A DNA stretch of 11,791 nt, from NCBI GenBank assembly GCA_035289485.1, contig DATDXA010000006.1, positions 1 to 11,791 on the forward strand, read 5' to 3'. A program made the position numbers and the translations under genes. This DNA comes from an archaeon (GTDB lineage: Archaea > Iainarchaeota > Iainarchaeia > Iainarchaeales > Iainarchaeaceae). Shown in pieces: positions 207-11,455 of the stretch. How positions within the stretch are numbered: position 1 is the first letter of the stretch; each line of letters begins with the position of its first letter. The notes below the pieces were generated by a model. That model did no database searches. It was not told the DNA's origin and saw only the letters and a program-made list of their open reading frames with translations.

Positions 207-428
207 ATGCCATCAACAATGGAATATCTCGCAATAGTTGCCGTAGGGCTGGTGCTCGTGATATCAGTAGTGCAGGCTGTACAGCTAACAGGCCTGAACG
301 AAAAAGCGGCGCAGCAAAACGCCGCACTCGGTTCGCTTGATTCTGGCGGCAACACAAGTGCGCTCAATCAGGCAAATCAGGCCCAGGCACAGGCGGCGCC
401 TTCAAGCCAAATGGTCGGCGGATGCTGA
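207..428 (+). CDS. Small membrane-anchored protein (73 aa): N-terminal TM helix, Q/A/S-rich linker, C-terminal MVGGC
   Basis: Strong SD AGGAGGT just upstream of ATG207. Hydrophobic YLAIVAVGLVLVISVV, low-complexity linker, ends QMVGGC-TGA. Confidence 0.85.
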   Translation: MPSTMEYLAIVAVGLVLVISVVQAVQLTGLNEKAAQQNAALGSLDSGGNTSALNQANQAQAQAAPSSQMVGGC

Positions 429-1448: not shown

Positions 1449-1934
1449 TCAGGCCTTTATTTGCCGCAGCTCATCAACAAGCCTTATCATATTGACCTTC
1501 CCGTGCTTTTCCACATGGATAATGCCACGGTCTTCGAGTTTTCTGACGACCCTGTGGGCCTTGAGCCGGGTCATTCCGGGCTGCGCGGAAATGTTGCTCT
1601 GAGTTGTGGCGCCGTCCTTTTCGAGCAGGAGCCTCACAATTTGCCGGTCATCATCGCCAAGGAATTTCATTATTATCTCGACATTGGTCTTGGCCATTTT
1701 CCTCTCGCGCTCAATTGTGCTGCTCATCATGCTATAAACCACAATGCCGGAAACCACGCCGAAAAGGCCCATTATGACCATGAAATGCACATGGTGCTCA
1801 ATGAAGGGCTTGAAAAGGTCAGGGACGGCTTCCCCTTTTGCCGAGAGGACATACACAAAGACAAGGACGGTCACAAGGAAAATGAAAACCGAGACAAGCA
1901 CAACTCCCAGAACTATCTTTTGCCGAAAATCCAT
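1449..1934 (-). CDS. Membrane-anchored winged-helix (MarR-like/COG2512-like) transcriptional regulator, 2 TM + C-terminal wHTH
   Basis: From ATG1934: two hydrophobic helices, then DRQIVRLLLEKDGATTQSNISAQPGMTRLKAHRVVRKLEDRGIIHVEKHGKVNMIRL, a typical wHTH. Divergent from the cop operon. Upstream ATGs at 1955 and 2000 fall in the promoter region. Confidence 0.85.
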   Translation of the reverse strand: MDFRQKIVLGVVLVSVFIFLVTVLVFVYVLSAKGEAVPDLFKPFIEHHVHFMVIMGLFGVVSGIVVYSMMSSTIERERKMAKTNVEIIMKFLGDDDRQIVRLLLEKDGATTQSNISAQPGMTRLKAHRVVRKLEDRGIIHVEKHGKVNMIRLVDELRQIKA

Positions 1935-1943
1935 GCAAACCAA

Positions 1944-1966
1944 ATATTGTTTCATCCCGCTGAAAT
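1944..1966. promoter_or_regulatory. Candidate operator 1: ATATTGTTTCA-tcccgc-TGAAAT
   Basis: Inverted repeat TTTCA(1950-1954)-N6-TGAAA(1961-1965), between the minus-strand TATA-like TTAATAAT (~1965-1972) and the regulator start. Confidence 0.7.
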
Positions 1967-2020
1967 TATTAAGCCTGCAGTTTATGCAAAGGAAAGGCAA
2001 AAAACGATAGTTTCACCATC

Positions 2021-2049
2021 TAATATATATTGTTTCAGATAAATGAAAT
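2021..2049 (+). promoter_or_regulatory. TATA-like box (TAATATATA) plus candidate operator 2: ATATTGTTTCA-gataaa-TGAAAT
   Basis: TTTCA(2033-2037)-N6-TGAAA(2044-2048), with flanks identical to operator 1, immediately downstream of the TATA-like box for the cop operon. Confidence 0.7.
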
Positions 2050-2081: not shown

Positions 2082-2501
2082 ATGGCAAACAAAGTCCTTG
2101 CAGAACGGAAGATGTTGGTTATCCTAGCCGCGGCACTGCTGATTTTTGGCGGCATGTTAATGGCCTGGAACTGGGCAAAAGAAAAACCTGCACAAGGCGG
2201 CTCGACCGCTGGCACGGCACTTACGGGGAATGTGCAGGAAATCTACCTCAAGGCACTTGGCAGCGGCACATACGACAAGCAAACCCTCACAGTGAGAAAA
2301 GGCCTGCCTGTAAGGCTGCATTTTAGCGCCGAACCAACGGCAGGATGCGGGAAGGCGCTTCTCATCAAGAAGTTCGGGGTGCAGCTGGTTTCAAAAAACG
2401 GGGAAGAGCAGGTTGCAACATTCACACCGCAGGAAACAGGGACATTTGAATACAGCTGCTCTATGAGGATGTTTGTCGGCAAGATGACGGTGGTGCCATG
2501 A
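2082..2501 (+). CDS. Membrane-anchored cupredoxin-domain protein (CupA-like copper chaperone)
   Basis: N-terminal TM helix; cupredoxin fold features (LTVRKGLPVRLHF...GC...FTPQETGTFEYSCSMRMFVGKMTVV). The Cys...C-x-M-x-M ligand set matches streptococcal CupA. SD GAGG at 2070-2073. Confidence 0.85.
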   Translation: MANKVLAERKMLVILAAALLIFGGMLMAWNWAKEKPAQGGSTAGTALTGNVQEIYLKALGSGTYDKQTLTVRKGLPVRLHFSAEPTAGCGKALLIKKFGVQLVSKNGEEQVATFTPQETGTFEYSCSMRMFVGKMTVVP

Positions 2502-2983
2502 GCGCCACTGAGGCACTCAGAGGGATAATTTCCACACCGAAATATGCCGCCACGGCGATTGCTATTTTCATAGTGCTGGCGCCGGTTTTTGCCCTGACTT
2601 CGGGCCTTATTGTGCCACCTTCGTTAGAACTCAATGCGATTGCAGAACTCCCCAAGATTGGAATGGTGGCGGCAATAGTCGGGCTTTTGGCGGTGAATGT
2701 TGCGGTGCTAAGGCGCAATATGGACATGAATGCCGACTCTGGCAAGGCAGTGGGAATTTTTGGCGGGGTTGCGGGGATGTTTACATCAACATGCGCGGTG
2801 TGCCAGCCTGTCTGGCTCATATGGATTGGATTTGGTTCGGCTAGCGCATTCCTTGCGGAAATAAGCTATTACATAGGCGCAGTGAGCATTGTGCTTCTTG
2901 CCTTCGGCCTTAACGGCCAGCTAAAGGCAGCCGAAGGGTGCGATACCGGAGGGGTGAAGAAATGGAAAAGACAATTAAGGTGA
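2498..2983 (+). CDS. Integral membrane protein (about 4 TM) with intramembrane CxxC (CAVC)
   Basis: ATGA overlap with the upstream stop. Hydrophobic segments and MFTSTCAVCQP, reminiscent of Cys pairs in MerT/MerC-type metal membrane proteins. Confidence 0.8.
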   Translation: MSATEALRGIISTPKYAATAIAIFIVLAPVFALTSGLIVPPSLELNAIAELPKIGMVAAIVGLLAVNVAVLRRNMDMNADSGKAVGIFGGVAGMFTSTCAVCQPVWLIWIGFGSASAFLAEISYYIGAVSIVLLAFGLNGQLKAAEGCDTGGVKKWKRQLR

Positions 2984-3165
2984 AGGGCATGCACTGCAAT
3001 TCCTGCAAGCTTCTTATAGAAGATGCCGTTTTGGAAATAAACGGCGTTGAAAAGGTGAAGGCCGATTTCGAAACAGGGAAAGTGGTTGTTGCATACTCTG
3101 TTGAGGGGATTGTGCCAAAAATCAAAAGCGCTATAGAGAAAGAGGGCTACTTGGTGGTCGGATGA
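2962..3165 (+). CDS. copZ: Copper chaperone, single HMA domain
   Basis: From ATG2962 (SD GGAGGGGTGA): MEKTIKVKGMHCNSC...IEKEGY, canonical GMxCxxC HMA domain, 67 aa. Confidence 0.92.
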   Translation: MEKTIKVKGMHCNSCKLLIEDAVLEINGVEKVKADFETGKVVVAYSVEGIVPKIKSAIEKEGYLVVG

Positions 3166-4088
3166 AAGAATACACGCTGCAGCTTAGCGGCATGACCTGC
3201 GGCTCGTGCGAACACCTCATTGAAAAGGTAGTGGCACGCAACGGCGCATCCGTCAATGCGATAGATGCCACATTGGGATTTGTCAGGCTCACATGTGATG
3301 AAAGCCAGATAGGCACGATTAGGGCCCAGCTGGCGGAAAAGGGGTTTGCAGAAACGGACGAAATTTCCGCGCAGAGGGGAAATCTGGCCAATGTGTGGAA
3401 TTATGCAAGGTCAATAATCTCAGCGAAACCGGAAGTAGAAGTGGAGGCGAAGCTGCTCAATTATGCCATGGGCTCGGCCATTGTGCTCGCGCTGCTTTCA
3501 GCGGCAGCATATTTGTTTGCACTAAATGGGATTCCGAATAAAGAGGCTTACCTTCCGCTCATTGCACTCTCCGTTGTCACTGCAATTTCAACGGCGTACC
3601 CCTACTATCACGCCAAATGCTACACAAAGCGCATGTCATGCAGCAACGGAATGATGTCTGGGATGATAATGGGAATGATGCCGGGTTTCATGGTAGGAGC
3701 GCTACTTGGCGCAACCAATGGCATGTTCATTGGCTCAACACTCGGGCTTATAGCAGGGATATTTATGGGAGTGAAAATCGGCAAATGCTGCGGGGTAATG
3801 GGCGCGCTTGAGGGAGTAATGGCCGGCCTTATGGCAGGGATTATGGGGGCAATGACATCGGTGATGATGCTAAATGACAACCTCATCGCTTTCCTGTACA
3901 TAATGTTCGCGGTCTGCGTATTCGTTCTTGCTGGAATGAGCTATATGATGCACCGCGAAGCCGGGCACACGCCAAAACAGGAATTCCGCACAAACTTCAC
4001 AGGTTTTCTTGCCGCAAGCACAATAATATGGGGGCTTTTAATGGCTTTCATGGCTTTCGGGCCAAAGGGGCCATTGACATTCATATGA
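3162..4088 (+). CDS. HMA domain fused to a Met/Gly-rich multi-pass membrane domain; putative copper transport or binding protein
   Basis: ATGA overlap with copZ. N-terminal GMTCGSC; membrane region with [20 protein letters not shown] and [29 protein letters not shown]. Confidence 0.85.
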
Positions 4089-4101
4089 GGAGATGCGAAA
4101 A

Positions 4102-6780
4102 ATGACAAAAGCAAAAGACCCTGTGTGCGGAATGGAACTGGAAAAAGAAAATGCCAAGTTCAAGGAAACAGTTGGCGGCAAGGAATATTATTTTTGCTCC
4201 AAAGACTGCCACGGCAAGTTCCTCTCCGCCCAAAAGGGCGATACCAAACAGGGCAGCGAAAAAAATGCCACAGACGCGCGTGGAACTGAAAAAAATGCAG
4301 CCAGCACGCAGGGCAGCATTTCAAAAGAAACATTCAGGGTAAGCGGCATGCACTGCGCATCCTGCGCATCCATAATCGAGCGCAGGCTCAAAAAGCTTGA
4401 TGGAGTAAGAAGCGCAACTGTCAATGTTGCAACAAACAAGGCAACGGTAGAGTATGACAGGGCACTTACCGGCGTTGAAAAATTTGACAAAACGGTAAAG
4501 GGCGCAGGGTATGGCATTGAAGGTGATGAGAGCGCAAAACCACAAGGCAGCCAGCGGGAAATAAGGCTGCATGTCAAAGGCATGGATTCGCCCCACTGCA
4601 CAGGAATAGTCCAAACAGCGCTTAGCAGAATTGACGGGATAACTTCAACGAGCCTCAAGTATGAGACGCAAACCGCAGGAATTACATTTGACGGCGCGAA
4701 AACAAGCCCTGAAAAAATACGCAGGGCGATTTTTGATGCGGGCTATGAACCTGAAACATTGCAGGGCGAGAGTGCGGGAGATATGGAAAAAAATGCCCGC
4801 GAAAAGGAAATTGCTCAATTAAAGCATAGGGTGCTCATTTCAGCAATCCTGACAGTGCCTGTAATTTTGCTTGCACTTCCAGAAATGCTAGAAGGGATAA
4901 TTGCAATAGACTATCCGCAAGCCATCATAGCTTATTTGCCAATTCTGCAGTTCGCGCTTTCCACGCCGGTTTTGTACGTGAACAGAGATTTTTTCACAAG
5001 AGGGTTCAGGGGCCTTTTGAACAGGACTCCGGGAATGGACAGCTTGGTGGCATTAGGCGTGGGAGCGGCATATGTTTACAGCATGACAGTTGCATGGGGT
5101 TTTGTGCAGGGCAAAATGTATTTTGAAACCGCAGCGCTTCTGCTCACATTCATAATATTAGGAAGATATCTCGAAGCCGTTGCAAAGGGCAAGACTTCTG
5201 AAGCGATAAAGCGCCTTATCGGGCTGCAGCCAAAAACAGCAATAGTTGTGCGCGCAGGAAAAGAAGTTGAAATCCCCATAAGCGAAGTTGCAGTGGGCGA
5301 CATCATACTTGTAAAGCCGGGCGATAAGATACCGGTGGACGGGATTTTGGTTGACGGCTCAAGCAGCGTCGATGAGAGCATGATTACAGGAGAGAGCCTG
5401 CCGGTACACAAAAACAAGGGAGACACTGTAATTGGCGCCACAATAAACAAAACCGGGGCGTTCAGGTTCAGGGCAACGAAAATCGGCAAGGACACAATGC
5501 TCGCGCAAATAATCAAGCTCGTTGAAGATGCGCAAGGGAGCAAGGCACCAATACAAAAGCTCGCGGACACGGTTGCCGGGTATTTCGTGCAGGGAGTGAT
5601 AGCGCTTTCCATTCTCTCATTTGTTTACTGGTATTTCATTGCTGGAGAGCCGTTCCTTTTCGCGCTTACAATACTTGTTTCAACTCTTGTGATAGCATGC
5701 CCCTGCGCAATGGGGCTTGCAACCCCCACCGCAGTGATGATTGGCACAGGAAAAGGCGCGGAGAACGGGGTGCTCATAAAAGACGCGGCAAGCCTTGAGC
5801 AGCTGCACAAAGTGAAGGTTGTGATTTTTGATAAGACCGGAACTATTACCAAAGGAGAGCCAGCGGTAACGGATGTAATAGCTTCCGGAATGAAAGAATC
5901 AGAGCTCATTTCGCTTGCGGCGAGCGCGGAGAAGAATTCCGAGCACCACCTTGGAAGGGCGATTGTAAAAAAGGCCACGGAGATGAAAATACGCATCTCC
6001 GAACCCAAAAAATTCGATTCAATCCCGGGGCACGGAGTGGTGGCTTATGTTGGCGCCAAAAAAATACTGATTGGAAATCTCGCCCTGATGAAAAAGAACG
6101 CTGTTTTGGTTTCCGAATCCCTGATTTCAAAAATGCACTCGCTTGAAGAGCAGGGAAAAAGCGTTGTGATAGTGGCGGCGGGAACAAAGCTTGCGGGAAT
6201 GATAGCGATTGCCGACACGATTAAGGATAGCTCACGCGGCGCAATAGAGGCGCTTGAGGCAATGGGTTATGAAACTGTGATGATTACGGGCGACAATGAG
6301 CGCACAGCAAATGCGATTGCAAAGCAGGCAGGAATTTTGAAAGTTCTTGCACATGTTCTCCCGCAGGACAAGGCAAATGAAGTGAAAAAACTGCAGCAAG
6401 GAGGGCGCAAAGTCGCATTTGTGGGGGACGGAATAAATGATGCTCCTGCGCTTGCGCAGGCGGATGTTGGAATCGCAATTGGCGCGGGAACCGATGTTGC
6501 AATAGAGAGCGCGAGCATTGTGCTCGTAAAAAGCGATTTGCGCGACATTGTGACCGCAATAGAACTAAGCGAATACACCCTGCGCAAAATCAAGCAGAAC
6601 CTATTCTGGGCATTCGGGTACAATGCTGTGGGAATACCAATAGCAATGGGAGTACTCTACCCGTTCACGGGATTTTTGCTAAGTCCTGTAATTGCGGGCG
6701 CTGCAATGGCATTTAGCTCGGTAAGCGTTGTTGGGAATTCGCTTCTAATGCGCGGATTCACGCCAAAAAGCAAAAAATAG
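4102..6780 (+). CDS. copA: Cu(I)-translocating P1B-1 ATPase with N-terminal YHS/TRASH domain and two HMA domains
   Basis: DPVCGM...YYFCSKDC (YHS), [38 protein letters not shown] and MAFSS Cu(I) signature residues. ATG4102 has better SD spacing from GAGGAG than ATG4093. Confidence 0.96.
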
Positions 6781-6880: not shown

Positions 6881-7015
6881 ATGAAACTCATTGAAGAAAT
6901 GATTAACCTGGTCCGCGACGATGACGAAGGCGGCGGAGAAGACTGGGACTCGGACGATGACGAAGATGGCGATTCAGACGGAGAATCTGAAGGCGACATG
7001 GACGAGAGCTCTTAA
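6881..7015 (+). CDS. Small hyper-acidic protein (44 aa)
   Basis: SD AGGAGG at 6867-6872. MKLIEEMINLVRDDDEGGGEDWDSDDDEDGDSDGESEGDMDESS-TAA. TATA-like TTTAAAAA at 6796-6803 upstream and a T-tract downstream. Confidence 0.75.
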   Translation: MKLIEEMINLVRDDDEGGGEDWDSDDDEDGDSDGESEGDMDESS

Positions 7016-7031
7016 ACTTTCAAATAACTGA

Positions 7032-7053
7032 TTCTTTCTTTTTTTATTTTTTT
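7032..7053 (+). terminator. Archaeal oligo-T terminator
   Basis: Near-pure T tract (interrupted only by two C and one A) shortly after the stop at 7015. Confidence 0.7.
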
Positions 7054-7125
7054 AATGCGAGCCTTGAGATAAGGCTGGAAAAAATAGTTCGCAATGCCTA
7101 AGGCACTGCCTCTTTTCTTTTTGAT

Positions 7126-7165
7126 CAAACTTTTTATTTTCTTGCCAGAGAAAAGAAAAAGTTTG
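7126..7165 (-). terminator. AT-rich inverted repeat / T-tract at the tRNA 3' end
   Basis: CAAACTTTTTATTTTCT (7126-7142) pairs with AGAAAAGAAAAAGTTTG (7149-7165) with one mismatch. The minus strand reads TTTTTCTTTT directly after the tRNA. Confidence 0.55.
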
Positions 7166-7247
7166 CGGAGGGCAGGATTCGAACCTGCGAAGGCACTAAG
7201 CCGCTACCGTCTGAGGGTAGTACGTTTGACCGCTTCGCTACCTCCGC
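7164..7247 (-). tRNA. tRNA-Leu (anticodon CAG), long variable arm, no intron, CCA not encoded
   Basis: Minus strand: GCGGAGG acceptor / CCTCCGC-A73; anticodon stem CTACC-CTCAGAC-GGTAG; variable arm GGC-TTAGT-GCC; T arm GCAGG-TTCGAAT-CCTGC. Confidence 0.95.
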
Positions 7248-7275
7248 AATGTTAACAATTTCTCCCCCTGCAAGA

Positions 7276-7283
7276 TTTTAAAA
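7276..7283 (-). promoter_or_regulatory. TATA box of tRNA-Leu
   Basis: TTTTAAAA about 29 nt upstream of the mature tRNA 5' end. Confidence 0.6.
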
Positions 7284-7297
7284 CAAGACTTTTGAGG

Positions 7298-7864
7298 TTA
7301 TTTGCCTTTGCGCAAAACAAGCCATTTCGCAAGCTTGCGCGTTGCAAGAGCACGGTGCGAAATCCGGTTTTTCTCCTTTATGTCAAGATTAACTAGAGCA
7401 TTTGAATATCCAGCCGGGACAAAGAGTTTCTCATAAGGAAGGCGGTCTTTGTCAACTGAAACCGCGCGCAAAAGCAATTTTCCGCGCAAATACCCTGAGA
7501 AGACCTTGAAGGTTTTGCCGTCGTAATAGCAAATCGCGGTTCCGAAGTGCGCGCTGCGGTTCTTTACCCGGCGGATGAGCGAGAGAAGCCCGTCAAACCC
7601 AATTCCTTCATACACGCGCTTTGCAAAAATACCCGGAAAATTGTGATACGCATCAAAGTACACGCCGGTGTCCTCTGCAATCACCGGTTTTTTTAGTTTT
7701 GCAAATGCCTGCTCCGCTTTTGACTTTGCAACCTCTTCAATCGAATTGAAATCTGGCTCGAGTATCTTGAGGCTTTTTTGCTTAACTGAAATGCCATACT
7801 CAGAGAGGATTGCGGAAATTTCCCCGACCTTGTGGCGGTTTGTTGTGGCGATAAAAATCTGCAT
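7298..7864 (-). CDS. rdgB: Non-canonical purine NTP pyrophosphatase, RdgB/HAM1 family
   Basis: IATTNRHKVGE, AKSKA, AEDTG, FPG, YEKLF, KNRISHRALA (SHR signature). Confidence 0.95.
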   Translation of the reverse strand: MQIFIATTNRHKVGEISAILSEYGISVKQKSLKILEPDFNSIEEVAKSKAEQAFAKLKKPVIAEDTGVYFDAYHNFPGIFAKRVYEGIGFDGLLSLIRRVKNRSAHFGTAICYYDGKTFKVFSGYLRGKLLLRAVSVDKDRLPYEKLFVPAGYSNALVNLDIKEKNRISHRALATRKLAKWLVLRKGK

Positions 7865-10516: not shown

Positions 10517-11455
10517 ATGTTTGTCGAAGTTAGAGAAGTCGGTGGAAAGAAAAAATACTATTTGGTTCATTCTTTCAGACATGACCAAAAGGTCAGAAAA
10601 ATTAGGAGATATTTAGGCACAAACCTAAACAAGGCAAAACTTAGAGATTTGAGACAAGTTGCGGAAAAGCAAATAATACAAAGAGTTAATGCCTTCAAAA
10701 AAATCAGTGACCCATTGCTTGAAGTTCTTTCAGAAGAAGAAATTCAAAAAATAAAGGAGCTGCAGGATAATAGCCAATTCAAAGTACTCCATCTTTCTGA
10801 AGAGGAATGGCAAAGATTTTCTGAAGTATTTACCTATAACACTAATGCTATTGAAGGCTCAGAACTTAATCAGAAAGAAGTCAAGGAGATACTGGAAAAG
10901 GACAAATGGCCCCAAGATAAAAGCAAAGAAGATATTTCAGAAGCTTATGGGGTAAAGGAAGCAATCCGGCTTATCCGTGAAACCAAAGAACACGTTTCCA
11001 TAGAAATTATCAAAAAAATCCATGAAATCGTCTTCAAAAATTCAAAACCATACGCCGGCCAGCTTAGGCCAAAAGGAATTGAAGTTGTAGTAAGAGACGG
11101 ACTTGGCAATATAGTTCATGAAGGTGCGCCTTCAGAAAAAGTGTCGGAACTGCTCAAAGAGCTTGTAAAATGGTATTCCGAATACCAAAAAAAGTACCCT
11201 CCATTGTTGCTCGCCGCGGTTATACATAACCAGTTTGAAAACATCCACCCTTTCCAGGATGGAAATGGGAGAGTAGGCAGAATCCTGATGAACAACATAC
11301 TCATAAAACACAGCTTACCGCCGGTAAACATTGACCTCAATAAGAGGAAAGAATATTACAAATCCCTCCAGGAGTACGAAAAAAACCACGATATTAGGCC
11401 AACAATAGAGCTTTTGCTCGAGGAATACAAGAAACTAAAAAAACAGCTTAGGTGA
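10517..11455 (+). CDS. fic: Fic-domain protein (AMPylase), class II with N-terminal autoinhibitory helix
   Basis: Canonical HPFQDGNGRVGR catalytic motif; inhibitory (S/T)xxxE(G/N) motif TNAIEG; basic N-terminal extension. Confidence 0.93.
   Translation: MFVEVREVGGKKKYYLVHSFRHDQKVRKIRRYLGTNLNKAKLRDLRQVAEKQIIQRVNAFKKISDPLLEVLSEEEIQKIKELQDNSQFKVLHLSEEEWQRFSEVFTYNTNAIEGSELNQKEVKEILEKDKWPQDKSKEDISEAYGVKEAIRLIRETKEHVSIEIIKKIHEIVFKNSKPYAGQLRPKGIEVVVRDGLGNIVHEGAPSEKVSELLKELVKWYSEYQKKYPPLLLAAVIHNQFENIHPFQDGNGRVGRILMNNILIKHSLPPVNIDLNKRKEYYKSLQEYEKNHDIRPTIELLLEEYKKLKKQLR

Follow-up and report, generated by a model that had tools for sequence, protein, structure and literature searches.

This locus raises the question of which protein controls a cop operon in a DPANN archaeon (Micrarchaeota/Iainarchaeota) and how such a protein might perceive its signal. 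The window, meaning the whole stretch of 11,791 nucleotides analysed here, carries the operon on the + strand. Its first gene, preceded by a Shine-Dalgarno-like GAGGT (2070-2074), encodes a cupredoxin-like membrane-anchored protein (2082..2501; Pfam Cupredoxin_1, 3.6e-08). Downstream follow genes for a membrane protein with a CxxC pair (2498..2983; an open reading frame with no family match), a small CopZ-like HMA metallochaperone (2938..3165; Pfam HMA, 1.3e-16), an HMA domain fused to a Met-rich polytopic membrane domain (3162..4088; Pfam HMA, 6.2e-05, with a score of 23.7 bits that falls slightly below the cut-off of 24.8) and a CopA-type P1B ATPase with N-terminal YHS and two HMA domains (4093..6780; Pfam E1-E2_ATPase, 4.3e-61, HMA and YHS). 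The CopA translation contains CPC, YN and MxxSS motifs, which we take to be of the Cu(I)/Ag(I) type. The cupredoxin-like gene is conserved beside the regulator described below in most loci, the HMA-membrane gene is conserved in the cluster and occurs in 37 of 215 genomes of the phylum, and the CxxC membrane protein gene is found in a subset of loci.

The initial annotation had stated that known copper regulators are missing here, and a scan of 13 open reading frames in the window indeed revealed no CsoR, CueR/MerR, CopY or TRASH-fused regulator. PadR-TRASH, CsoR, MerR, HisKA and response regulator proteins were likewise not found in the organism's own genome (90% complete), where both HisKA and Response_reg gave 0 matches and YHS matched only CopA and a stand-alone 51-codon open frame (about 47 aa counted from its Met). 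Control of the cop operon by the divergently encoded membrane protein is well supported by the comparisons below, and this protein is probably, judging from sequence, a new kind of copper sensor.

Architecture of the regulator

The gene for the membrane-anchored winged-helix regulator (1449..1934, − strand; ATG at 1934, stop codon at 1449-1451) was delimited by its open reading frame and translation together with 102 homologues, and because these share an identical MD-R-K N-terminus, ATG 1934 is supported as the start. Translation from this ATG gives 161 residues without a single Cys, as initially annotated. The proposed order of two transmembrane (TM) helices followed by a winged helix-turn-helix was recovered by Kyte-Doolittle hydropathy, by an AlphaFold2 model (mean pLDDT 91.2) and by Pfam. 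Hydropathy and the model together define helices at residues 3-32 (TM1) and 39-46 (a short helix in the loop) and an unbroken helix at residues 48-91.

All of the following features lie on the − strand. TM1 comprises residues 7-30 by hydropathy and AlphaFold2 (1845..1916; model helix 3-32) and leads into a 17-residue extracytoplasmic loop, residues 31-47 (1794..1844; from loop charge, alignment and model), in which Pro38 is near-invariant in the homologue alignment. TM2, residues 48-70 (1725..1793; alignment, AlphaFold2 and helical wheel), runs on into the cytoplasm as a single helix with pLDDT of 87-94, and its AlphaFold2-defined extension (residues 71-91; 1662..1724) joins the membrane part to the DNA-binding domain. 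The latter, a winged helix-turn-helix of the DUF7343 family at residues 94-157 (1464..1655), was assigned by Pfam, alignment and Foldseek, the AlphaFold2 model placing it after helix 48-91; Pfam DUF7343 (PF24034) matched residues 94-152 with 39.5 bits against a cut-off of 27.6, and the score in a genome-wide search was 41.5 bits. Within the recognition helix, M121, R123, L124, A126, H127 and R128 are invariant in the alignment. Foldseek against the PDB matched the winged helix to those of ArsR, MarR and CodY proteins (E about 1e-3); the matches covered the winged helix only, and the search found no solved structure with the membrane architecture of the regulator.

Positively charged residues follow a clear pattern across 73 homologues: K+R averages 2.29 ahead of TM1 and 3.07 beyond TM2, but 0.30 within the loop. 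This distribution therefore fits an N-in, loop-out, C-in topology, in which the His/Met patch EHHVHFMVIM (residues 46-55; 1770..1799) faces outward, as had been supposed. The patch, characterized from alignments and helical-wheel angles, lies exactly at the loop/TM2 junction where it had been placed.

Copper linkage and the conserved face of TM2

The link between the regulator and copper genes is strong. Among 75 homologous loci, a sample gathered partly via a pattern containing the motif and so biased towards it, 70 carry cupredoxin, HMA, HMA-membrane or CopA genes divergently adjacent to the regulator, down to 30% identity, in line with the original expectation that homologues would be tied to copper loci. 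The remaining five consist of two at contig edges, one beside a CopA fragment and two with neither motif nor linkage. As an independent, motif-free check, a family profile was run against 215 genomes of the phylum. Of the 22 best matches (E ≤ 2.2e-49; G000 down to G089), which make the check one of 22 genomes, 21 share a contig with an HMA-membrane gene at a distance of about 2 kb or less; only G094 (the same locus as L039) departs from this and adjoins a CopA fragment. Full-length or near-full-length matches lacking His48 and Met52 (L067 and L074) are those without a nearby cop gene. In the phylogenetic tree, the cop-linked clade forms one side of a branch with an SH-aLRT of 89. The window protein falls inside the 73-row clade, its smallest starred set comprising 44 rows (98*), and it shares the features of that clade: TM2 begins with His48 and Met52, a cop cluster lies divergently beside the gene, and the intergenic DNA carries a GAAAC/TATA/GAAAC operator block.

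The initial annotation had also named conservation of the His/Met residues as a check, and this was borne out at particular positions. All 73 full-length clade members (28-82% identity) retain His48 and Met52, and Met55 is kept in nearer relatives (42/70; I, V, L or T in the other 28). The "HHxH" string as such did not hold up, position 47 being Y, F, H or N (mostly Tyr or Phe) and position 50 being E, H, Q or P. The patch thus exceeds chance only in part, at His48 and Met52. On a helical wheel, a 100-degree arc of TM2 takes in residues 48, 52, 55, 56, 59 and 63; Gly63 is invariant in 74 sequences, and Gly56, Gly59 and Gly63 share one face with His48 and Met52, so that two protomers could offer two His and two Met. 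Since one His and one Met are the only invariant candidate ligands per chain, a metal site would require a dimer.

The same conserved face could instead serve protein packing. In such a case the regulator would control the cop operon without binding metal itself and would read a neighbouring membrane partner, as CadC reads LysP, with His48, Met52 and the glycine stripe forming a protein-protein interface; the Met-rich HMA-membrane protein, the CxxC membrane protein, the anchored cupredoxin and CopA are candidate partners. The recurrence of the same set of membrane proteins beside the regulator in 70 of 75 loci, the packing character of the conserved TM2 face, and an outside loop of just 17 residues with few ligand residues are all consistent with a partner. 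Against this, near-universality among the neighbours is limited to the cupredoxin and HMA genes, both of which are absent from some loci (cupredoxin is missing among the matches at L050, L053, L054 and L057, for example), while His48 and Met52 stay invariant. His and Met at the membrane-water boundary are classic extracytoplasmic Cu(I) ligands, and a cop-adjacent sister subclade carries a different but likewise ligand-like Cys-x5-Cys-x-His where the window clade has His/Met. We regard partner reading as unlikely.

Helix-breaking or small residues within a TM helix are typical of intramembrane protease substrates, and Gly56, Gly59 and Gly63 of TM2 could be viewed in this light. The conserved TM2 residues would then have a structural role or mark a site recognized by a protease, and the protein would be either a tethered regulator released by proteolysis or a constitutive tether holding the cop locus at the membrane, with envelope stress as the signal. 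Bacterial membrane-bound regulators cut by intramembrane proteases provide a precedent, as described in passages of PMC10449499. However, conserved protease genes are missing from the neighbourhood, this reading would leave unexplained why the regulator is coupled so tightly and exclusively to copper genes and why His/Met is clade-specific, and the continuous, confidently modelled helix 48-91 resembles a transmission element rather than a cleavable linker. We consider this explanation very unlikely.

Relatives outside the clade indicate how far copper defines the family. All 20 paralogues from other clades are without the motif and without the four-gene cop cluster of the window; three of the 20 have some P-type ATPase 2-3 kb away. 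The 2TM-DUF7343 scaffold itself is not copper-specific: for 14 of 20 sister-clade genes the nearest 1 kb contains no cop gene, and sister-clade neighbours are varied, among them ferric-reductase-like, DsbA-like, hemerythrin, cytochrome b5 and 4Fe-4S genes. The sister clade presents a Cys-x(n)-Cys-x-His motif in the loop of the same scaffold, so the description "Cys-free" holds for the window clade only. Two further candidates for metal binding were set aside. A metal site on the winged helix, suggested by the invariant Met121 and His127, is not clade-specific, as His127 and its surrounding helix are common to paralogues without copper linkage. Two paralogues with a CGCH loop (L101 and L102), divergent from a gene for a CPYG-motif product, lie near another P1B ATPase, which has its own ArsR-type gene directly upstream.

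These neighbourhoods bear on whether the regulator responds to another cue relevant to copper handling, such as redox or oxygen, Ag, Hg or Zn, or pH, or acts as an activator rather than a repressor; we judge this family of possibilities to be decidedly unlikely. Glu occupies position 50 in 37 of 70 homologues and is equally compatible with Cu(I) and with a harder or divalent ion, and the redox-type neighbours in the sister clade would suit a different cue. A second, TRASH-type regulator also occurs in some loci and suggests two different inputs: five loci of clade I (L025, L036, L041, L055 and L061) contain an additional PadR-TRASH gene inside or beside the cop cluster, and the membrane regulator therefore need not be the copper sensor there. 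On the other hand, the regulated genes are all of copper type (HMA, cupredoxin-like and a CPC/YN/MxxSS ATPase, a metal assignment that we presume from these motifs). In some relatives, the cop cluster occurs without the membrane regulator. A PadR + TRASH regulator adjoins cop clusters that lack the membrane regulator (DISPLACEMENT) in G084, a one-contig genome, and in G150 and G020, and is also found beside a CopA gene in L111 and L112.

Operator-like DNA and a proposed mechanism

The intergenic region between the regulator and the cop operon contains a conserved operator-like element, GTTTC-N8-GAAAC, together with GAAAC repeats that surround a TATA box at a spacing of 22 bp. In the window, an inverted repeat O2 of the form GTTTC-N8-GAAAT (+ strand; 1949..1966) lies 15 nt upstream of the regulator ATG. 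A second operator/promoter block (2010..2049) comprises a GTTTC half-site (2010-2014), the TATA-like AATATATATT (2022-2031) and the inverted repeat O1, GTTTC-N8-GAAAT (2032-2049). TTTCA-N6-TGAAAC has two matches in the genome of 1,156,387 bases, both in this intergenic region. Of 70 intergenic regions from homologous loci, 66 contain TGAAACAAT, 63 the direct repeat with its 22-bp spacing and 54 the palindrome; for the last two, 200 shuffles gave at most 1 of 70. The consensus of the operator block was derived from 61 loci. A TATA run follows none of the other 46 genomic copies of TGAAACAAT, and GAAAC shows no positional enrichment in 835 upstream regions of the same genome, which excludes it as a general BRE-like promoter word. 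The GAAAC-TATA-GAAAC block precedes eight of the 12 sister-clade regulator genes examined, some of them with no cop genes nearby; the block therefore travels with the regulator gene. We infer that the regulator binds the GTTTC/GAAAC element.

Taken with the architecture, these sites suggest a scheme that we hold with slightly better than even confidence, namely a one-component repressor of the cop operon that is membrane-integral and autoregulated and would sense Cu(I) from outside or within the membrane through a His/Met site where TM2 begins. The regulator, acting as a dimer, would control both itself and the divergent copper-export operon (cupredoxin, CxxC membrane protein, CopZ-like HMA protein, HMA-Met-rich membrane protein and CopA). 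When copper is absent, its winged helices would occupy the GTTTC-N8-GAAA(C/T) inverted repeats and the GAAAC half-sites that bracket the TATA box at a 22-bp spacing, and would thereby block TBP, TFB and RNA polymerase at the cop promoter and at its own. Cu(I), possibly also Ag(I), would arrive from outside or from the outer membrane leaflet; His48 and Met52, where TM2 reaches the outer face, would bind it with help from Glu, His or Gln at position 50 and from Met55. Repacking of TM2 would then be transmitted through the rigid helix 48-91, reorienting the winged helices, releasing the DNA and inducing the operon.

Within this scheme, copper as the signal, its external origin and the role of His/Met as ligands are more tentative than operon control itself. 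Palindromic sites and the glycine stripe suggest a dimer; a homodimer prediction with two copies of the regulator and the homologue alignment scored 0.10 against a mark of 0.42, a value that speaks neither for nor against it. Repression is likewise the presumed direction of control. Half-sites flank the TATA box on both sides, an arrangement also compatible with activation and consistent with an activator; archaeal repressors usually act directly downstream of the TATA box, and it is the position of O1, directly downstream of the TATA-like box, that argues against this.

A search of literature available without subscription turned up neither an account of this protein family nor one of any one-component copper sensor embedded in the membrane. 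It is possible, though we would put it somewhat short of even, that the family represents an undescribed class of kinase-free, Cys-free membrane one-component metalloregulators, in which Cu(I) held between two TM2 helices at the outer face would act through a rigid helix on a repressor, and that its scaffold is a general archaeal platform for transmembrane signalling by one-component proteins. If so, the short segment before TM2 would be swapped to change the ligand, as in His-x-Glu-x-Met here, Cys-x5-Cys-x-His-Glu in the second cop-linked subclade and other Cys motifs elsewhere. One Cys-free chain of 161 aa doing both jobs within the membrane would be a new solution to metal sensing; it would provide tiny DPANN genomes that lack two-component systems with a means of perceiving their surroundings and would explain how envelope copper defence is controlled in very small, kinase-free archaeal genomes. 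A sensor paired with an 18-bp operator would also be a compact part for biosensor work, and the phylum offers a natural experiment in which the same cop cluster stands under a membrane His/Met regulator, a soluble TRASH regulator or both.

Comparison with known regulators

Copper-responsive one-component regulators of the MerR/CueR, CopY, ArsR/BxmR, TetR/ComR and CsoR types are treated as cytoplasmic sensors in passages of PMC10141476. The window protein differs from several of these in domain content: Penicillinase_R (PF03965), the CopY/BlaI domain, is not among its Pfam matches at E ≤ 0.01 and it has no Cys for the C-terminal CxCx4CxC motif of that family, Trns_repr_metal (PF02583), the four-helix bundle of CsoR with its Cys/His/Cys site, gave no match in the regulator or in the whole genome, and the regulator has neither a TRASH/YHS match nor a Cys. 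Archaeal TRASH regulators (Sulfolobus CopR/CopT type; PadR + TRASH) do the same job in the same place beside the cop cluster (L122, L123 and L127). They are, however, soluble, their Cys-rich C-terminal TRASH domain would read cytoplasmic copper, and they have no sequence kinship to the window protein.

ArsR/SmtB and MarR metalloregulators are dimeric repressors that leave DNA upon metal binding. Members of these families gave the best Foldseek matches to the DNA-binding domain (pI258 CadC, 1u2w; AntR, 6uvu; 25-26% identity). Those proteins are soluble and carry their metal sites on the winged helix (Cys or His/Asp/Glu, at alpha3N/alpha5), whereas the candidate site of the window regulator lies in the membrane, in a protein with two TM helices and no Cys; NCBIfam HTH_metalloreg scored 20.8 bits against a cut-off of 55, and what links the regulator to ArsR/SmtB is similarity at the level of the fold (E about 1e-3).

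BcrR of Enterococcus and ArnR of Sulfolobus are polytopic, membrane-anchored helix-turn-helix regulators that sense at or in the membrane, ArnR being an example of a membrane-bound one-component regulator in archaea. Both have an N-terminal HTH and C-terminal TM helices, and their signals are bacitracin (BcrR) and starvation/motility (ArnR). The window regulator resembles them as a membrane-anchored HTH protein but differs in signal, has the opposite domain order and shows no sequence relation.

CusS/CopS sensor kinases use His/Met ligands, and the transmembrane detection of extracytoplasmic copper proposed here would be similar. According to passages of PMC10141476, cells detect outside copper mainly through two-component systems with transmembrane sensors. 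Unlike these, the window regulator has neither HisKA nor HATPase_c, its genome gave no HisKA or Response_reg matches, and sensor and DNA-binding output would be combined, without kinase or response regulator, in one 161-aa chain.

In the bacterial activators ToxR and CadC, an OmpR-type winged helix at the N-terminus is combined with a single TM helix and a large domain in the periplasm. As single chains that combine a membrane anchor, an outside-facing sensor and a winged helix without a kinase (passages of PMC5430869 and PMC6320335), they share with the window regulator the joining of all three parts in one polypeptide. The domain order is nevertheless reversed in the window regulator, which has a C-terminal winged helix (DUF7343), two TM helices and a 17-residue loop in place of an outside domain, and its candidate ligand residues lie inside the TM2 helix itself.

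A cysteine-free putative membrane regulator beside a divergent cop operon

The regulator gene occupies positions 1449–1934 on the minus strand (ATG at 1934, stop at 1449–1451) and encodes 161 residues, none of them cysteine. Pfam placed a DUF7343 winged helix at residues 94–152 (39.5 bits versus a cut-off of 27.6), with other winged-helix families matching more weakly and below threshold, and hydropathy marked membrane spans at residues ~7–30 and 51–70. A confident AlphaFold2 model from a 74-row alignment (mean pLDDT 91.2) comprised a helix at 3–32, a short helix at 39–46, an unbroken helix at 48–91 and a winged helix at 94–157. The architecture read in the initial annotation, two transmembrane (TM) helices followed by a winged helix in a protein without cysteine, was thereby borne out, and its EHHVHFMVIM stretch at the loop/TM2 junction was located exactly (residues 46–55, window 1770–1799). 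Across 73 homologues, lysine plus arginine averaged 2.29 ahead of TM1 and 3.07 beyond TM2, against 0.30 for the intervening loop. Because the positive-inside rule and the cytoplasmic requirement of a DNA-binding domain agree, we predict an N-in, loop-out, C-in topology, in keeping with the outward-facing patch originally proposed.

A family scan of the window ORFs identified five divergently transcribed genes from 2082 on the plus strand, encoding a membrane-anchored cupredoxin-like protein (ATG 2082), a CxxC membrane protein without a family match, a CopZ-like HMA protein, a fusion of HMA to a Met-rich membrane domain (3162–4088, +; hereafter the HMA-membrane gene) and a P1B ATPase of CopA type that carries YHS and two HMA domains. 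Among the 13 ORFs scanned there was no CsoR, MerR/CueR, CopY or TRASH-fused regulator, in line with the absence of known copper regulators noted initially. The membrane domain of the HMA-membrane protein is very Met-rich and polytopic; the protein is kept in nearly all cop clusters of the clade and could be a membrane carrier, of no assigned family, for Cu(I).

Other features of the window were also recorded. Downstream of the operon lie tRNA-Leu(CAG) (7163–7248, −), a Ham1-family NTP pyrophosphatase (7298–7864, −) and a Fic-domain protein (10517–11455, +); a Ham1/PCC/geranylgeranyl-reductase block is syntenic in the homologous loci L010, L023 and L124. A 362-aa protein (337–1425, +), whose N-terminus is lipobox-like and which contains a PCCSNPTAFPDCNHGMA segment, has no family in Pfam or NCBIfam; homologues 42–66% identical to it are found close to the cop locus in L016, L018, L031, L111 and L122. 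This 362-aa protein is similar to the Cys-rich segment of a group of predicted secreted or membrane proteins with a common -MVGGC C-terminus, found in the window (207–428, and 3–167, cut at the window start; both +), elsewhere in the same genome (C55:306–1190, −) and in L122 (7931–8191 and 8193–8975, −). The larger of these share the Cys-rich segment CEYCCG...ACGCAHS, and in this lineage -MVGGC may direct sorting or lipidation at the C-terminus.

We then considered linkage in 75 loci from one-genome-per-species contigs, in which the window's own proteins were placed by tblastn. In 70 of them, the regulator gene had cupredoxin, HMA, HMA-membrane and/or CopA genes immediately upstream on the other strand, mostly at gaps of 56–263 bp (a few up to ~1.2 kb) and at identities down to 30%, tying the homologues to copper loci as had been anticipated. 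L003 and L075 end at contig edges, so linkage there cannot be judged; L039 adjoins merely a 142-residue CopA-like fragment; and L067 and L074, which have no cop gene, are the sole two loci without the His/Met residues. Two loci look like decaying ones: a same-genus regulator copy with an in-frame TGA (G101:C21:12731–13204), and L039 (G094:C2), where the regulator is intact beside the CopA fragment only.

Since one of the four peptide patterns used contained the Met52/Met55 segment, the sample leans towards the motif, and the test was therefore repeated without that pattern in two separate searches of 215 phylum genomes, one with an alignment-derived family profile (A2) and one with the HMA-membrane protein. 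Among the best 22 regulator matches (E ≤ 2.2e-49, window's genome included), 21 lay within ~2 kb of a same-contig HMA-membrane gene, the exception being G094 (= L039), and genomes G178 and G191 supplied two more such pairs at E ~1e-45.

The HMA-membrane gene occurred in 37 of the 215 genomes, 14 of which had no adjoining clade-I regulator (the cop-linked form with His48 and Met52), and six of these 14 were examined. Beside the cluster in G084 (one contig, 99% complete), G150 and G020 sits a 136–140-aa PadR-TRASH protein, with PadR above cut-off and TRASH_HVO_1752_C at 23–25 bits, just under its cut-off of 27; in G109 the contig ends, and no regulator was seen in the flanks in G155 and G174. 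A soluble Cys-based regulator in the same place gives good support to the functional assignment. The PadR-TRASH protein also adjoins CopA in L111 and L112, and coexists with the membrane regulator in L025, L036, L041, L055 and L061, directly upstream of copA in four of these five. This coexistence suggests that the two proteins read different compartments; it equally allows that the membrane regulator senses something else in those loci, as an explanation invoking another cue would have it. As locus entries, cop clusters that have the PadR-TRASH gene in place of the membrane regulator include L122 (4527–4949, +), L123 and L127.

Within the window's own genome, an assembly 90% complete in which absence is not proof, we found no CsoR, MerR, HisKA or response-regulator domain and no PadR-TRASH protein (best match, the PadR half only, E 1e-7). 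The genome does contain a BlaI/BlaR1-like pair with a cysteine-free BlaI-like regulator, an isolated 51-codon open frame for YHS (~47 aa from Met) and one HATPase_c match in a 582-aa frame.

Conservation of the His/Met patch and family relationships

In a first alignment of 50 of 102 matches, His48 and Met52 were invariant and Met55, Phe51 and Pro38 nearly so. Among 70 cop-linked proteins, the window's own and those of 69 loci, His48 and Met52 were present in all, whereas position 47 was Y in 42, F in 22, H in 5 and N in 1, and position 50 was E in 37, H in 17, Q in 15 and P in 1; position 55 was M (42), I (12), V (8), L (7) or T (1). This reduces the conserved core to His-x-[Glu/His/Gln]-x-Met: of the patch first put forward, His48 and Met52 stood, and the 'HHxH' string gave way at 47 and 50. 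On a helical wheel of TM2, residues 48, 52, 55, 56, 59 and 63 fall within an arc of 100 degrees; Gly59 and Gly63 were invariant and Gly56 nearly so in the first alignment, and Gly63 was still invariant across the wider 74-row alignment. The shared arc and conserved glycines thus put the His and Met at the outer end of an apparent helix-packing face, where a symmetric dimer would, we infer, join two His and two Met.

A word-indexed search returned 102 relatives, all of ~160 aa, the named ones from Micrarchaeota or Diapherotrites/Iainarchaeota metagenome bins. Exhaustive phmmer against cluster representatives matched 810 sequences at E ≤ 0.001, of which 163 reached E ≤ 1e-10, with lengths mostly of 150–190 aa; the ESM Atlas, taken as a lead only, places DUF7343 clusters of like size in many archaeal phyla. 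The family profile matched in 158 of the 215 phylum genomes, and 40 further members from that search were fetched as two extra locus sets. In a sister clade (n = 20), 18 members carry a Cys-x(5-8)-Cys-x-His-[Glu/Lys] loop motif before TM2 and two, L103 included, a single-Cys variant, as does the separately fetched L128. HMA/CopA genes lie within 1 kb in all six members of one sister subclade (L113, L114, L116–L119) and in none of the other 14, whose neighbours follow no common pattern and include ferric-reductase-like, DsbA-like, hemerythrin, cytochrome b5 and 4Fe-4S proteins. In the six, regulator ORFs at ~6940–7580 of each locus have Cys-x5-Cys-x-His-Glu in place of His/Met before TM2 and may represent an independent Cys-based membrane copper sensor.

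Distant paralogues (n = 20) comprised 13 of ~195 aa with a long loop and seven with CxC-type loops. The His/Met motif is missing from all 20, as is a cop cluster of the window type; some P-type ATPase lies 2–3 kb away in three, and two of those ATPases have their own ArsR-type gene. The 179-aa paralogues in L101 (3998–4537, −) and L102 bear an ETCGCHE loop motif and are divergent from a gene for a CPYG-motif product, with an ArsR-type gene and a P1B ATPase at 2–3 kb. In a maximum-likelihood tree of 114 rows, with the partial rows L074 and L075 left out, a branch with SH-aLRT 89 separates the 73 His/Met proteins from the other rows; support was 99 for the sister clade, 100 for its nested cop-adjacent subclade and 100 for the long-loop group, and L067 sits on a long branch of uncertain position.

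A candidate operator in the intergenic DNA

The 9-mer TGAAACAAT was present in 66 of 70 intergenic regions. With the regulator gene oriented rightward, the consensus of 61 loci reads TgTTTCATtnngcTGAAACAATATATATtAAnTnaTGAAACAATCat and holds a GTTTC-N8-GAAAC inverted repeat and, on either side of a TATA-like run, two copies of GAAAC at a distance of 22 bp (two helical turns). Of the 70 regions, 54 had the palindrome, 63 the direct repeat and 60 a GAAAC with the AT run after it; each of these features was limited to at most 1 of 70 regions in 200 shuffles. By sequence reading of the plus strand, the window carries GTTTC (2010–2014), AATATATATT (2022–2031) and GTTTC-N8-GAAAT (2032–2049), with an SD-like GAGGT (2070–2074) preceding the cupredoxin ATG at 2082, and a second GTTTC-N8-GAAAT (1949–1966) 15 nt upstream of the regulator's start codon.

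The strict form TTTCA-N6-TGAAAC has two copies in the 1,156,387-base assembly, both of them the window intergenic sites, and the AT run follows none of the other 46 genome copies of TGAAACAAT. GAAAC as a general promoter word was ruled out by its even spread over −80 to −1 of 835 long ORFs, upstream of which the enriched words were TTTAAA/TTAAAT/TATATA. A GAAAC-[C/A]ATATATA-N-GAAAC block also precedes 8 of 12 sister-clade regulator genes examined, some without nearby cop genes; the element therefore tracks the regulator gene, like an autoregulatory operator. The recognition-helix residues M121, R123, L124, A126, H127 and R128 were invariant in the first alignment, and we infer that the regulator binds the GTTTC/GAAAC candidate sites.

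Proposed mechanism and relation to known systems

Synteny, operator conservation and regulator displacement together strongly back control of the divergent cop operon, the part of the initial interpretation that held, and the protein very probably regulates it; the conserved set of candidate ligands is smaller than proposed. The best-supported reading is an autoregulated, membrane-integral one-component repressor, which would sit on the GTTTC/GAAAC sites around the cop TATA box and before its own gene. Repression is moderately favoured over activation, its rival. At the outer end of TM2, His48/Met52 would bind Cu(I), and perhaps Ag(I), with help from position 50 and Met55, whereupon the repressor would leave the DNA. 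That copper is the direct ligand at this site we hold to be slightly better than an even bet; the competing explanation is sensing via a partner, with a neighbouring membrane protein as mediator. The continuous 48–91 helix would transmit the change to the DNA-binding domain, for which proteolytic release or mere tethering would be the alternative to such signalling by the repressor.

Searches of full-text literature open without subscription brought up no description of this regulator family or of a membrane-embedded one-component copper sensor; a review (PMC10141476) lists MerR/CueR, CopY, ArsR/BxmR and TetR/ComR as copper one-component families and names CsoR in its results. Membrane-bound one-component regulators and copper-responsive winged-helix repressors are already-known kinds. 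In fold, the DNA-binding domain is an ordinary winged helix of the ArsR/MarR-like type (Foldseek E ~1e-3 to AntR, pI258 CadC, CodY and MarR proteins), yet the protein falls below the ArsR/SmtB family cut-off and has no ArsR/SmtB metal site. It resembles ToxR/CadC-type receptors in joining putative membrane sensing and DNA output in a single chain, but differs in domain order, TM helix number and sensor, and is not a member. Its proposed job equals that of CusS/CopS, but without a kinase, and that of TRASH regulators, but without cysteine, and there is a reasonable likelihood that it represents a separate, new class of metal sensor.
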